From contig JBMNIF010000002.1 of the NCBI GenBank assembly GCA_050950765.1, forward strand, positions 384,001 to 448,000: DNA of 64,000 nt. Direction: 5' to 3'. Within the stretch, counting starts at the first letter, position 1; each line of letters starts with the position of its first letter. Positions 24,001 through 30,000 of the stretch are shown here, in pieces. A program made the position numbers. The DNA comes from Bdellovibrionota bacterium (lineage in GTDB: Bacteria; Bdellovibrionota_C; UBA2361; JAAYZI01).

Positions 24001-27000
24001 GCACTTGGTGCCGCAGGTGTTGTCTCTGTACTATCAAACCTATTACCGAAAGAGGTTGTTGCTTTAGTTTCTGCAGCAGCTTCAAACGATATCACAGCTG
24101 CCCGTAAGATTCATTACCACCTCCTTCCACTTTTTAAAGCAATTTTTATTGAAACAAATCCGATTCCGATCAAGGCTGCTATGAATTTATGTGGTATACC
24201 GTGCGGTGGTCACCGTTTACCTCTCTGCGAAATGAAGCAGGAGAACCTTGAAAAACTTATCTCTGTTTTACAAGAGTTGAAAATTATCAAAGGATTATCT
24301 AACGCAGTTTAGTAAGCTTGTATGTTTTCTGCCTTACTTATTAAAGTTTAATTATTATTGCACGATTTTTACGGAGTATCATGGATAAATTACATTTTAC
24401 GAAAATGGAGGGTACAGGCAACGATTACATCTATATAGATTGTTTAAATTGCGAGATGCCTCAACTCTCTGCCCCTGAAATTACTCGCCTTTGCGATAGA
24501 CACTTCGGCATCGGTGCAGATGGCGTCGTTTTTATTTTACCCTCTGAAACAGCCGATTTTAGAATGCGTATGTTTAACGTTAATGGTACTGAAGCAGAGA
24601 TGTGCGGCAATGCTTCTCGTAGCATCGGAGTCTATCTTTATAATCGCGGCAAAACTGAAAAGACGAATATTAAATTGGAGACAAAAGGCGGCATTAAGGA
24701 TCTATTTTTAAATATTGAAAATAACCTCGCCACCTCAGTCTGTGTCGATATGGGGATCCCTTCCTTAACTCCCGCACACATCCCAGTTATTAGTGACAAA
24801 GAAAAAGCCATTAACGATACAATTCTAATTGATGGACGCACTCTATACATGAGCTGTGTCTCTATGGGAAATCCGCACGCCGTGTTTTTTGTATCAGAGA
24901 TAACGGATGAGCACGTCCTAACATGGGGACCTCAAATAGAGACACATCCGTTATTCCCTAAACATACCAACGTTGAGTTCGTACAGATTATCTCCAAAAC
25001 AGAGATGCGAATGCGTGTCTGGGAACGGGGTACTGGAGAAACTTTAGCTTGTGGAACAGGAGCGTGCGCTGCACTTGTAGCAGCCTCTTTAAACGGATTA
25101 TCTGATGATAAGGCAACAGTGCATCTACTGGGAGGAGACCTTAAGGTCGAATGGAGAGACGACGATCACGTTTATCAGACAGGACCTGCAAAGATAGTTT
25201 TTGATGGCACTTTTATATTTTAACGCCCCTCCCCCTAAGAGCCTAACTCCTTAATAATAAAGGATATATAGGTCACTATCAAGGCATCTGCCGTATTTGT
25301 GCCACCACTACAAACACCTTTCAAACCCTATTACATCCGAGCCTTACAAAAACTTGAGTTACTTATCAATCATGGTGTATCCTCACCTTATATAACGGAG
25401 CTGCGTCTCTTACGGAGTGTCAAGATTGAGGCAGTGATAGTCTTCTGCATTATTCATGATAATTCATACAAAAAAACAGTAACGAATTATCATGAATGAT
25501 ACAGGCAAAAAGGAGTTAAGTGTATTTTTATTCCTCCTTTTCTGTTTGATCTATTACTAATACTAAGTTGTCTTCTGTATCTCAATCGCAATCCCCTTTG
25601 CGATACTCACACCGCAAGTAGTGTCTTCGTTATCTCTTATTTAATTAAGATTTTTTTACAGCAAAAAAATAAGGATAAACTATGCGCTTTAAGATAGCAG
25701 CTAGACAAAACAACTCCGACTCTAAGATTGAAAAAGATCACTACCGTGAGATAGAAGATAATCTAAATTATCACTTTAAAGATATCACATATCTGCAACG
25801 TGCTTTAACACACCGTTCCGCTCCCGTCGCACACGGTGCCGGAAATGATTACGAAAGGTTAGAGTTCTTGGGAGATGCCGTCTTAGATCTCGTTGTTGCC
25901 GACCTCTTACTCTCGGCACATCAGAACATCAAAGAAGGTGAGCTATCAAAGATGCGCGCCGCTTTAGTAAATACACTCTCTCTCGCTGAGATCGCCCGCA
26001 CAGTTAAACTTGGAAAATATATTAAACTCAGTCGCGGCGAATTAGCTAACGGTGGAGCAGACCGTCCTTCAATCTTAGCTGATGTCTTTGAAGCTACTAT
26101 CGGTGCTATCTACAAAGATGCTGGATATGCACAGGTCTTCGAATGTATCAAAAGCCTCTTCGGCGATAAGATCTCAACAGTCACCCCGATCGATCCGAAA
26201 ACAGAGCTGCAAGAAGCTCTGCACCTAGCAGGTAGCGAAGCTCCAAACTATCTTTTAGAATGCGTAGAAGGTCCCGAGCACGCCCCTACTTTTATATCAG
26301 TTGTTGAAGTTGATAAGCAGATCGTTGGACGTGGCAGCGGTCCCACCAAAAAAGCATCACAACAAGCAGCTGCAGCAGAAGCTTTAGAAAGACTACTTAA
26401 AGAAGATGAGATAGATCACACTTTCTTTACAATTGATGCACAAAATTTAATCCAGAACCACACAGCAGAGATGGAGGACTAATGGGGAAACGTATTCCGA
26501 CCGTCGCCATTGTTGGGCGCGCCAACGTCGGTAAATCAACACTTTTTAATGCACTCGTTGGGCGCAAGGTTTCTATCGTAAAGGATAAGCCAGGGGTAAC
26601 TAGAGATCGTAACTATGCCTTAGTTCGAAAGTTTCCCGTACCTTTTACACTGATTGATACAGGCGGACTTCTGCATGACGACGATATCGCTTTACAGGAA
26701 TCAATCAAGAATCAGACCGATATCGCTATTCAAGAGGCTGATTTAATCTTAGCCCTATTGGACGGACTTAACGGAGTGCATCCAAATGATCACGATATTG
26801 TGAACCTCCTCCGTTGCACATCCAAACCTGTCATCTGGGTTGTTAATAAATGCGAAAAGCCTTCCATAGAGGCAAACGCTTGTGAGTTCTTCGAGCTGGG
26901 CATAGAAGATCCCTTCCGAATTAGCGCAGCACATAACGTCAATATTAAACAGCTCTTAGCTAAGATCAGAGATGTGTTGCAACTTGGAGACCCTGAGAAC

Positions 27001-30000
27001 TTCATTGATTCTGAAGAGGAAGAGAGCGGTGTCATCCGCATCGCTGTGATCGGACGTCCGAACGTCGGAAAGTCCACCTTTATCAACACAATCTTAGGTG
27101 AAAGTCGTCTGATTACATCTGATATCGCTGGAACTACTCGAGATAGTATCGATACACCCCTAAAACGTGAGGGGCGCGATCTCGTTCTGGTCGATACCGC
27201 AGGACTACGCAAAAAAAGTAAGGTCGATAATGCTGGGCTTGAATATGCAGGTAACGAAAGAACGATTCGCGCCTTAGCAACTTGCGATGTTGCAATACTC
27301 GTCCTCGATGTAACGCGCGGCGAACCTGCTGAACAAGATGCCAAAATCGCAGGACTAATTCACGAACGTGGTAGATCTTTAGTTATTGTTGCTAATAAAT
27401 GGGATGCCGTAGAAAAAGACCACAAATCTGCTAAAAAATATAAAGATGCCATCTATGAAGCGTTCAAGTTCGTAAAATATGCACCTGTTCTCTTCACCTC
27501 TGCCAATACCGGTAGACGCTGCCCACAAGTTATAAAAAAAGCTATCGAGGTTTACGATACCGCACGTATCAGAATACCCACCTCAGAGTTAAACAAGATC
27601 ATCTCTGAGGCTTTTGAAAAACATCAACCGCCAACACATCGCGGAAATATCGTGAAGATCTTCTTCGCCGTACAGATTAGCGTTGCACCACCAACGATTG
27701 TACTCTTCGTAAATCATCCTGATAAAATAAACTTCTCTTATCAACGTTACTTAACAAACGCTATCAGAGAAAAATACCCTTACGAAGGTGTAAAAATAAA
27801 ACTTATCGTAAAAAAACGCACCTCCGCCGGACAGGAAAAAAAGAAGCTTAAAGGTTTTTGACCTCCGCTAACACCATAGTAGCTTTTGCAAAGCAGTTGT
27901 CCCAAGAAAAAGAAAGATAAAGCTTCTAAAATTTTGACCTCCCTTAACACCATAGTAGCTTTTACAAAGCAGTTGTCCCAAGAAAAAGAAAGATAAAAAC
28001 TCTTAAATTTTTTACCTCCGCTAACACCATAGTAGCTTTTGCAGAACTACTGTCCCAAGAAAAAGAAAGATAAAAACTCTTAAATTTTGACTAGCCAAAC
28101 ACACGGCAGCAGACCTTACCGTACAGAGACACAACGCCGACCTCCCCCCCCCCTCTCTATCCGCAAGGTGTTTAAATGGTTTGGCAATACTGCCCAACTC
28201 GTATATAATAATCTGTTATTATTAAATATTTTTACAATCTTTAAAGTAACGCCACCTCCCCAGTAGTAACTTTTTGAATCTTTTTAGGACATTAAATACT
28301 CTTGATTTATATGCAGTTTTTGCGGATCATCACGGGCGGTTGTGTTTTATTCGGCTTCGTCCTTATTAAATAACATAAGGGAAAGAAGTGGTTACGCAGC
28401 AATATGTATGCTTTTATTTAATAACACACCTTTGTTCTGTTTTTGGACGTTCTGTTTTTTGTAAACAGTTGAAACGAACGATTTAGACGATGGTGTTTTT
28501 TTGGAGAACTATTTTTGAAGGGATTTTATCGAGGACGCCGACCAGGCGTAAAACCTGACGCTAATGAAACTCACCGTATTAATGATCGTATTCTTGCACG
28601 TGAAGTACGTCTAATCTCCGATGAAGGAGAACAACTTGGCATTGTCAGCACCAGAGAAGCTTTGAGGATGGCAGAAGAAGCAGGGCTGGATTTAGTTGAA
28701 GTATCAGAAGATGCACGTCCACCCGTTTGTCGCTTAATGGATTACGGCAAACTTAAATATAGAGAGCAGAAGAAAGCTGCAGAAGCTAGAAAAAAGAGAA
28801 CGGAAATTGTTATTAAAGAGTTGCGCTTAAGATATCGTACTGATGTCGGCGACTTTGAAACGAAGATACGTCAAGCTCGCGATTTCTTGCAAAATGGAGA
28901 TAAAGTTAAATTTTCCATGCGCTTCAAAGGTCGCGAAGCGATGTATGTTAACTTGGGCGTAGAAAAATTTAATGAGGTTGCTGAACGTCTAAAAGATATC
29001 GCAGTCATTGATGATCAATCACCTGCCTTTGGTCGTCAAATTCATATAACCTTCGCACCACTTAAAGGAAAAGCAGCACCTGCTACTCCTGCTGCTCCAA
29101 AATCAGAAAAAGAGTAATTGCAAATCGTATGGATAAGAATTTACCTAATGCTACTGCAAAAGATCTGTATGCTTTAAGTAGCGCTAAATTAGCAAAAGCT
29201 GTCTTCAACGGTGATGTTCCGGAAAAGTTTATCAGAGAGTTACCAGCACAGAGCCTATTTTTATTGGTAAAACATAACGGACTAGATTCCTCTGCTGATT
29301 TAATAGAGATGGCAAGCGTCAAACAGTGTCGTCTACTGTTAGACTTTGATTGTTGGCAAGGAGATGATTTTTATGAAGATAACTTCTGGAACTGGTTGGC
29401 AATTACTGATGCTAATGAGAATTTAAAACTTCTAAAAAAAATTATTACAGTTGCAGATTTAAATATCATCTCTCTACTACTCGCTAAATATGTGCAGTGG
29501 ATAACTTTAGAAGAACCTACCGATCAGCCACCTGCGGCGGAATACTACACTCCAGATAAAGGAACAACGTGGTTAAACATCAATGCTCCTGATTCGGATA
29601 AAACTTTTTTGCTGGGGCGGATGTTAGCGATGATCTTTGAAAACGATGCTGAGCTCTTTTATCAACTCTTAGCGACAACGGGTGCGCTGACAAACAGTGA
29701 GATAATCGAAGAAGCTTATCAAAACAAGGTTAAACGTTTAGCTGCAGAGGGTATCCCTGACGATGAATTTGCTTATACCGTCAATGCACCACTTTCTGAT
29801 AAAGAGGTCTCCGCTATCCTAAACAAAGACTCTTCTTTAAAAGGAGTCATAAATGATATTCGAACGATCGGTCCTTTAATTTACGACTCTATGACGGTGC
29901 AACCTCTACGCGGGTTATTATCAAAGATCCAACCGCGCGATGAGTTTGAAGCGGAGTTAACCTTAATTATGAACTGCGCCGTCCTGCGCTTTAAAGTTGA

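Follow-up and report, generated by a model that had tools for sequence, protein, structure and literature searches.

Gene content of the rnc-der junction

The window, the whole 64,000-nucleotide stretch of DNA analysed here, belongs to a 2.64 Mb genome (94% complete) of the order UBA2361 in the Bdellovibrionota. This genome and all those compared with it are unannotated bins, and none of the genomes of the order scored as complete. The following features of the window bear on the assembly of the small ribosomal subunit:

25682..26482, plus strand: rnc, coding for RNase III (266 aa) and opening the ancestral rnc-era-der block (open reading frame; Pfam Ribonuclease_3 and dsrm)
26473..26484, plus strand: rnc-der junction, the site of era removal, with GGAGG and then the overlapping stop/start TAATG (sequence)
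26482..27861, plus strand: der/engA (459 aa), two G domains and a KH-like domain, short interdomain linker (Pfam MMR_HSR1 twice, KH_dom-like)
28515..29117, plus strand: infC, initiation factor 3 (Pfam IF3_N and IF3_C)

The TAA stop codon of rnc (26480-26482) overlaps the ATG of der, and a GGAGG motif lies at 26473-26477. This junction was spanned by a single contig in all four public runs (from four studies, none marked as a possible source). The downstream gene has the two tandem G domains and C-terminal KH-like domain of Der (26482-27861, Pfam), while infC, which would provide a retained anti-association checkpoint, enters the mechanism proposed below as context only.

Between rnc and der there was no room for era in any of 20 order loci (from 18 of the 21 families), and rnc directly precedes der also in G001 and G002, two reduced genomes filed in another order. 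In the sister orders, the rnc-era-der block was contiguous in 8 of 12 Era-bearing loci. The view of the preliminary description, that era was excised from a block still seen in the sister orders, is therefore upheld.

Era is absent from a clade of 93 genomes

Full-length matches to the Era profile TIGR00436 were found in 0 of the 91 order genomes, in 28 of 33 genomes from other orders (one of these 28 having its Era gene split by a stop) and in 10 of 10 bacterial controls. A count of 67/124 genomes over cut-off was rejected because it sums the two G domains of Der. Der is also the best Era-profile match of the present genome, yet only its G domains align, and the Era-profile matches listed in this genome are, by inspection, Der or other GTPases of known families. 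Among its proteins none combines a single G domain with a type II KH domain in ca. 300 aa, Era profiles matching G domains only, and a KH-only profile (best E 0.15) found no leftover Era KH domain. Whereas only 18 candidates per genome had originally been scored, hmmsearch run without filters on every six-frame frame of at least 40 aa in this genome (22,605 frames) found no RimM, no KhpA and no Era KH domain, which answers the earlier worry on this point for the present genome.

Two of the five Era misses outside the order are G001 and G002, which nest inside the order on our tree, so that a single era loss covers 93 genomes. The remaining three belong to the Era-bearing clade, and in each of them der lies at or near a contig end. 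Regrouped by the tree, Era is present in 0/93 versus 28/31 genomes, a difference for which incompleteness cannot account. The earlier claim of Era absence from the order thus holds, but not its confinement to the order, since the clade includes G001 and G002.

Changes in the GAUCA tail of 16S rRNA occur in 4 of 29 genes of the order (G1530A and C1533U, each twice) versus 0 of 12 in the Era-bearing clade. We count them as released constraint on the tail read by Era, noting that they amount to two events and that 25 of the 29 genes keep the motif. Seven foreign-looking 16S loci were dropped from these counts (G014, G047, G073, two of G076, G083 and G116), and 16S matches in G013 and G052 were chance matches. 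One flank context of G1530A had four exact matches in 185,579 species genomes; with no wild-type count, this is suggestive only. A long Der linker was rejected as a correlate of Era: the linker is a mark of the Era-bearing clade, while the Era-less group has an ordinary Der.

RimM is missing throughout the phylum

PF01782 exceeded its cut-off in none of the 124 phylum genomes. An iterated profile of 49 RimM sequences, including divergent members, gave two matches in the 124 genomes at E<=0.02: the best of the present genome (C2:180551-181291, E 0.004), which is LolA by Pfam, and a 23-position fragment. The same approach recovered 9 of 9 very divergent RimMs in leave-one-out searches (E<=2e-8). 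No protein of this genome showed by profile the two-barrel architecture of RimM (N-terminal barrel plus PRC barrel, ca. 170-200 aa), although a structural analogue that left no sequence trace may exist.

The gene order agrees with this absence, as the preliminary description had noted. On the minus strand at C3:17259-18359, rpsP is followed by trmD after 63 bases, and rpsP directly precedes trmD in 27 of 28 order loci, the other locus being cut short. Neither khpA nor rimM was found after rpsP in 30 loci of the other orders (four of which end within 260 bases). In the neighbouring phylum, 3 of 15 genomes without a RimM hit hold a very divergent RimM in place that TIGR02273 missed, which indicates that profiles do miss RimM.

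Order and recurrence of the losses

On a tree of six proteins, the phylum consists of two groups: an Era-bearing clade (SH-aLRT 100) and the order, inside which G001 and G002 nest (89.5). The branch of these two genomes is long, and they are represented by 423 of 942 columns. The rimM gene was lost together with khpA from an ffh-rpsP-khpA-rimM-trmD operon in the phylum ancestor, and era was lost from rnc-era-der in the ancestor of the order and its nested family f22, leaving rnc joined to der. Most likely, RimM was lost first and Era second.

The present genome retains RbfA, RimP, RsgA, YbeY and KsgA, as previously described, and also RsfS and IF3 (profile matches). It lacks RsmI, RsmG and RsmB. 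The loss of RsmI and RsmG had been reported together with that of Era and RimM, and applies to this genome but not to the whole order: RsmG is kept in 67/91 order genomes and RsmI exceeds its cut-off in 9/91, so these losses are patchy.

The double loss of Era and RimM is not peculiar to this order. In the neighbouring phylum 80 genomes were sampled, of which 21 lacked both hits, 14 lacked only RimM, one lacked only Era and 44 had both, a table that counts related genomes and hence few events rather than 80. Only 1 of the 22 Era-less genomes had a RimM hit. A TrmD-only tree joins this second Era-less lineage to the order (0.97), whereas the six-protein tree puts its genome G153 outside the phylum without settling its placement. 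Given this conflict, we do not accept a shared ancestry of the two Era-less lineages; the independence of the second rests on one genome.

An RRM fused to bS18 and other features of the ribosome

In 113 of the 116 phylum genomes with a hit, the sole S18 gene lies in a frame of 170-268 aa, and 48 of 51 S18 sequences read carry an in-frame RRM. Of the three exceptions, one is due to a frameshift, one to a contig end and one, in the Era-bearing G009, to a true deletion. In the present genome the only S18 gene is found at C3:667212-667760, rpsR being missing from rpsF-rplI, and encodes a complete S18 core (PF01084 at 129-178) behind an N-terminal PF00076 domain (E 1e-22). The fusion was modelled with a pLDDT of ca. 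89 (below 50 in the tether, residues 83-97), and the modelled RRM lies within an rmsd of ca. 1 A of solved RRMs. Its RNP1/RNP2 aromatics (F6, F46 and F48) are nearly invariant.

Between clades, the RRM is 42% identical, versus 53% for ribosomal proteins. For the RRM, the ratio of the distance inside the Era-less order to the distance inside the Era-bearing clade is 0.87, lower than in any of 20 ribosomal proteins (1.04-3.98), with a ratio of ratios of 0.66 (column bootstrap 0.48-0.89). This test used 15 and 8 genomes, in pairs that are not independent, and the shift of the S18 core has the same direction (0.82, interval 0.60-1.13). RRM-bS18 is a candidate partial substitute for Era, with an RRM that is more constrained in the Era-less clade; a link between the fusion and Era loss is proposed here. 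However, six neighbouring-phylum genomes without Era and without a RimM hit have a plain S18 frame of 99-121 aa, so RRM-bS18 is not required for Era loss.

A phylum-specific Trp18 in uS19 is a candidate substitute for RimM. It was rejected as a general answer to RimM loss, because five RimM-less neighbouring-phylum genomes keep Lys18. The preliminary statement that no substitute factor was identified can be improved by naming the fusion and Trp18 as mere candidates. Decay of the uS19 tail was too variable to weigh (acidic-basic motif in 0/23 order, 8/16 sister and 32/60 distinct outgroup sequences). A deletion in uS13 reportedly suppresses rimM loss in E. coli; none was seen in 24 phylum sequences. 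A1015 in helix 33b, present in 22/25 order and 10/10 sister genes, was given no weight. Loss of the anti-Shine-Dalgarno sequence was rejected as a reason for Era dispensability: both 16S genes of the present genome end GAUCACCUCC, and Shine-Dalgarno sites precede 510 of 1024 long genes versus 124 in a control window. Since these sites are in use, the RRM cannot hold the 16S tail permanently.

Interpretation of the double loss

We consider it probable, while far from certain, that rimM and then era were truly lost in two steps, and that 30S assembly now follows a slower route guarded by retained factors. Era and RimM would speed and police 30S folding without performing any indispensable chemistry. 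The head and the platform would mature via the slower route under the guard of RsgA, KsgA, RimP, YbeY, IF3, RsfS and RbfA, the last being a factor that binds helix 45 and the 3′ tail, as Era does. Published work on E. coli describes similar helix 45 binding by Era and RbfA, compensation of a rimM knockout by rbfA dosage (PMC3575805, PMC9032327, PMC13246957), and, in RimM-less cells, a role for IF3 and working ribosomes in the end, after a delay (PMC13246957). The same source reports that overexpressed rbfA does not rescue the recovery delay (PMC13246957). Era is moreover described as essential in E. coli, its depletion being worse than the loss of RbfA or RsgA, so RbfA alone is no obvious cover.

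Built-in features of the phylum's ribosome may, more tentatively, have lowered the cost of the losses: the N-terminus of bS18 carries a tethered RRM that would sit in the platform cavity, uS19 has Trp18, and the anti-Shine-Dalgarno sequence would be masked by a hairpin of the precursor. None of them would be required in general. The ribosome appears to bear an added RNA-binding module near the usual work site of one lost helper.

Some weight, although well short of even, is due to an account without any compensation, in which the cells grow slowly, are probably predators or depend on a host, can afford slow assembly and lose maturation genes through drift, the RRM-bS18 fusion serving mRNA recruitment or stress and Trp18 being a neutral mark. 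The lack of RsmI, RsmG and RsmB in the present genome, the patchiness of losses across the order, the decay or loss of RimM in several neighbouring-phylum clades, the Lys18 of RimM-less genomes and the intact uS13 would all fit. But genomes of up to 4.8 Mb that keep RbfA, RsgA, YbeY, KsgA and also RimP and RsfS, the two that CPR nearly lack, do not suggest such shedding, and the tighter RRM constraint would be left unexplained.

It is unlikely that the RRM on bS18 is the actual replacement of Era, having arisen in the phylum ancestor, kept the 3′ tail of 16S rRNA inside the platform cavity during assembly, made Era redundant and been re-tuned after its loss. Its near-universal occurrence, aromatics, constraint and divergence between clades would suit that role, as would the entry of bS18 N-terminal extensions into the platform cavity and the help of bS18 in holding the anti-Shine-Dalgarno sequence in Bacteroidetes. 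Against this, Era was lost without an RRM in the six genomes with plain S18, most of the Era-bearing clade keeps both, and the association with Era loss is one event. Furthermore, an RRM has no GTP switch, the use of Shine-Dalgarno sites bars permanent tail-holding, free RRM proteins of Bacteroides are without effect on ribosome assembly, and the constraint test has the small sample and S18 core shift given above. Still more doubtful is the combined proposal, in which the RRM would take over from Era as chaperone of the 16S 3′ tail, Trp18 would replace RimM in locking the head, and Era loss would repeatedly have required the prior loss of RimM across Bdellovibrionota-like phyla.

Finally, the escape of a moved and diverged Era or RimM from detection, or their omission from incomplete bins, is suggested by the RimMs that TIGR02273 missed and by the three Era misses near contig ends, but is very improbable: those RimMs kept their place between rpsP and trmD, and the iterated profile does find them, 0/93 versus 28/31 is too large a difference for incompleteness, and the Era G domain is too conserved to vanish, the listed matches being Der or other GTPases.

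Comparison with known systems

A 2023 review held that only extremely genome-reduced groups have escaped Era dependence; most CPR, as well as Chlamydia and Dependentiae, are known to have lost Era (PMC10582724). Outside CPR, Era and RimM were fairly called near-universal (over 90% conserved, bioRxiv 2024.11.29.625318). In the present set, 93 genomes as large as 4.8 Mb escaped that dependence once RimM was gone, and the pairing recurs in a separate lineage. The RimM-less, Era-bearing sister clade offers a natural comparison for what Era is essential for, and the RRM-bS18 fusion is a concrete part that could be examined in E. coli or B. subtilis.

As in CPR, Chlamydia and Dependentiae, whole clades here build 30S subunits without Era (PMC10582724; bioRxiv 2024.11.29.625318). 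CPR are described as nearly lacking rimM, rsmG, rimP and rsfS, and some of their classes as keeping rbfA or era in a complementary manner. Unlike those extremely reduced groups, the Era-less genomes span 1.5-4.8 Mb, and an Era-bearing sister clade dates both losses. With 2.64 Mb, RimP and RsfS, the present genome falls outside the CPR-type reduced set (0.5-1.5 Mb), and RsmG persists in most of the order.

The E. coli rimM knockout can be bypassed via rbfA dosage or changes in uS13, uS19 or helices 31/33b, with IF1, IF3 and RsfS guarding immature subunits (PMC3575805, PMC9032327, PMC13246957). It is, however, a laboratory mutant that keeps Era.

Chain v of PDB entry 5mmj, listed only as a chloroplast small-subunit chain, is presumably cS22/PSRP2. 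Together with bS18c, cS22/PSRP2 provides a precedent for RRMs on a bacterial-type 30S subunit and for a bS18 extension into the platform cavity (bioRxiv 2026.07.03.736309; PDB 5mmj). However, cS22 is a protein of its own with tandem RRMs, located at the foot (helices 6 and 10), and the bS18c extension is a short repeat and not an RRM. The bS18/bS21/bS6 arrangement of Bacteroidetes shows that bS18 can help to hold the 16S 3′ tail on the platform (PMC7797042). There, plain bS18 residues do so in a mature ribosome, which is thereby blinded to Shine-Dalgarno sequences (PMC7797042), whereas here an RRM has been added and Shine-Dalgarno sites are used.

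Loss of Era at the rnc-der junction

In the genome under study, G000 (2.64 Mb, 5 contigs, 94% complete), two adjoining genes were recognized as ORFs with Pfam matches:

window 25682-26482: rnc
window 26482-27861: der

The rnc stop and der start overlap in the window sequence, and this junction was spanned by a single contig in 4/4 sequencing runs (4 studies, none marked as a possible source). A tandem repeat (3.1 copies of 76-77 bases; window 27855-28091) lies immediately 3′ of der.

The preliminary description held that Era is missing throughout order UBA2361, with rnc joined to der where sister loci read rnc-era-der, and both statements were borne out. 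A full-length TIGR00436 (Era) match was obtained in 0/91 order genomes vs 28/33 genomes of other orders and 10/10 bacterial controls. When G000 was searched, unfiltered, with a profile built from 11 sister Eras, only G domains were matched, and the KH part gave no match (best E 0.15). Between rnc and der, 20/20 order loci (18/21 families) contained no Era-KH match and too little space for era, the 17 loci with a value having 17-371 bases up to the first Der motif. Eight of 12 Era-bearing loci read rnc-era-der; one read era-der without rnc, and in the last three rnc-era was present and der was either cut off or distant. In the Era-bearing clade, Der carries a long acidic linker (loci L001-L012, L243) that adds ~100 residues, among them a conserved motif, and is absent from Era-less Der; Era of that clade reads GxxNAGKS in place of GRPNVGKS.

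Era was missed in five genomes outside the order. In G003, G008 and G020, der is located at or near a contig end. In G001 and G002, rnc adjoins der and bS18 is the order-type RRM fusion (in G001, rpsP also adjoins a split trmD), and a six-protein tree placed both inside the order, on a long branch. Because these two genomes share the junction and the order-type bS18 and nest in the order, a single Era loss spans 93 genomes (Era in 0/93 vs 28/31 in the sister clade). The loss assigned to UBA2361 stands for the order genomes, and its clade also takes in two genomes from outside.

Absence of RimM

The claim that RimM is missing from the whole phylum was likewise upheld: PF01782 exceeded its cut-off in 0/124 phylum genomes, and trmD lay directly 3′ of rpsP in 27/28 order loci. 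Outgroup loci read rpsP-khpA-rimM-trmD, and neither khpA nor rimM followed rpsP in 30 other-order loci (4 of them cut short). The earlier caveat that a divergent RimM might escape the profiles was justified in the neighbouring phylum, where TIGR02273 matched 46/81 genomes; of 15 genomes without a match that were read at trmD, three encoded a very divergent RimM at that site and 12 had none there. Against its applying to G000, a 73-sequence RimM profile that recovered 9/9 divergent RimMs leave-one-out (E<=2e-8) found solely LolA there. A 49-row profile yielded 2 weak matches over the 124 phylum genomes. Throughout the phylum, bS16 bears a basic C-terminal helix (L053:6031-6357, L054-L083), and TrmD, which in the Era-bearing clade is fused to a SPOUT domain, is split in the order (L053-L083).

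Other assembly factors and ribosomal components

As first described, G000 retains RbfA, RimP, RsgA, YbeY and KsgA and lacks RsmI and RsmG; we also found RsmD, RsmE, RsmH, YqgF, RsfS, bS1, bS21 and IF3, and did not find RsmB genome-wide. RsmI exceeded its cut-off in 9/91 order and 26/33 other genomes, and RsmG was present in 67/91 and 31/33, respectively. Many order genomes have an RsmI-like methylase with a weak match only.

uS13 was ordinary. In uS19, 41/41 phylum sequences (L248:3442-3714 and 40 other loci) had a G-H-K-G motif and Trp instead of Lys at residue 18, which we take to be oriented toward helix 33; Trp18 occurred in 0/78 outgroup loci. In 185,579 species genomes, a pattern scan found 102 matches, namely 96 uS19, all of the Trp18 type, and 6 chance matches. 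Five RimM-less genomes elsewhere kept Lys18, and PMC8073977 places the RimM binding site on the C-terminal tail of uS19, not at position 18. In G001 and G002 (L250, L251) the S10 operon is broken up, with rpsS-rplV-rpsC as an isolated block.

In G000, the anti-SD of 16S rRNA is intact and SD sites are in use. The GAUCA tail, which is read by the Era KH domain according to PMC10582724, was altered in 4/29 order vs 0/12 sister genes after removal of seven foreign-looking loci. Further 16S changes were C1404U with its compensating partner G1497A, both in the decoding region (G000, C1:433172-434690), A1410G, forming a wobble with U1490 (25/27 order, 0/12 sister genes), and U1202G (23/26 genes). 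Just downstream, an SD-like sequence in the 3′ trailer (41 loci) can pair with the anti-SD; pairing of -2 kcal/mol or better occurred in 28/29 order and 8/12 sister loci and not in E. coli.

The RRM-bS18 fusion as a candidate substitute

The only bS18 gene of G000 encodes a fusion in which a flexible tether joins an RRM to the bS18 N-terminus:

C3:667212-667760 (L585:1713-2261), minus strand: RRM-bS18

The gene is relocated out of rpsF-rplI and the fusion is phylum-wide. The bS18 frame measured 170-268 aa in 113/116 genomes, the RRM was in frame in 48/51 bS18 sequences read, and both domains were present in 120/120 homologues among the matches listed; the only true RRM deletion was in an Era-bearing genome. 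In 19 genomes outside the phylum, an RRM on bS18 was neither seen nor given space. RRM and linker form distinct order and sister types, the RRM having diverged fast between these clades while being conserved within the Era-less clade beyond prediction from any of 20 ribosomal proteins. That RRM-bS18 truly replaces Era nevertheless seems unlikely to us, given that the RRM is absent from Era-less genomes elsewhere and that free RRMs of Bacteroides had no effect on assembly according to PMC13370968. As a weaker inference, RRM-bS18 may contribute to Era-less assembly.

Two paralogous proteins of ~110 aa without Pfam match are encoded at window 31268-31603 (minus strand) and L585:2630-2953, and one copy adjoins RRM-bS18 in both clades. 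By inspection, three neighbouring-phylum genomes carry a bS6-bS18 fusion (205-213 aa; L606, L609, L610). Published work treats bS18 and the anti-SD in Bacteroidetes (PMC7797042) and the chloroplast bS18 N-terminal extension (bioRxiv 2026.07.03.736309).

Order of the losses and comparison with other lineages

Among 80 neighbouring-phylum genomes, for which completeness values were not given, Era was missing in 22, of which 21 also had no RimM match (in G175, a divergent RimM is recognizable from its position), and RimM alone was missing in 14. Six Era-less, RimM-less genomes (G137, G153, G160, G167, G174, G181; L525, L539, L612-L620) formed one clade on the TrmD tree (0.99); three of them encode a secreted-looking protein of ~390 aa just 5′ of der. 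The six-protein tree put G153 outside the phylum of UBA2361, which suggests, through that one genome, a second lineage independent of the order; the TrmD tree disagrees. The neighbouring-phylum pattern fits loss of RimM before Era, with few events counted.

We consider the double loss very probably real, and the data establish the gene losses and their order. RimM went first and Era second. Their absence would be buffered by RbfA, RsgA, KsgA, RimP, YbeY, IF3 and RsfS, as we infer from E. coli genetics in PMC13246957, PMC10582724 and PMC9032327 (PMC3575805 covers the E. coli rimM knockout and suppressors). Such stepwise, buffered loss is the account we moderately favour.

In the literature covered (titles and abstract starts; most subscription papers fell outside), nothing was found on Era/RimM loss in the phylum or on RRM-bS18; supplementary tables of bioRxiv 2024.11.29.625318 could include these taxa. 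The accessible text of the Era review (PMC10582724) makes no mention of Bdellovibrio, and reports Era as absent in Dependentiae, Chlamydia and most CPR and patchy in Planctomycetota, Elusimicrobiota and Synergistota. The double loss is not unique to the order, and loss of Era and RimM is already known; what is new is that genomes of such size show it and retain the remaining assembly kit.
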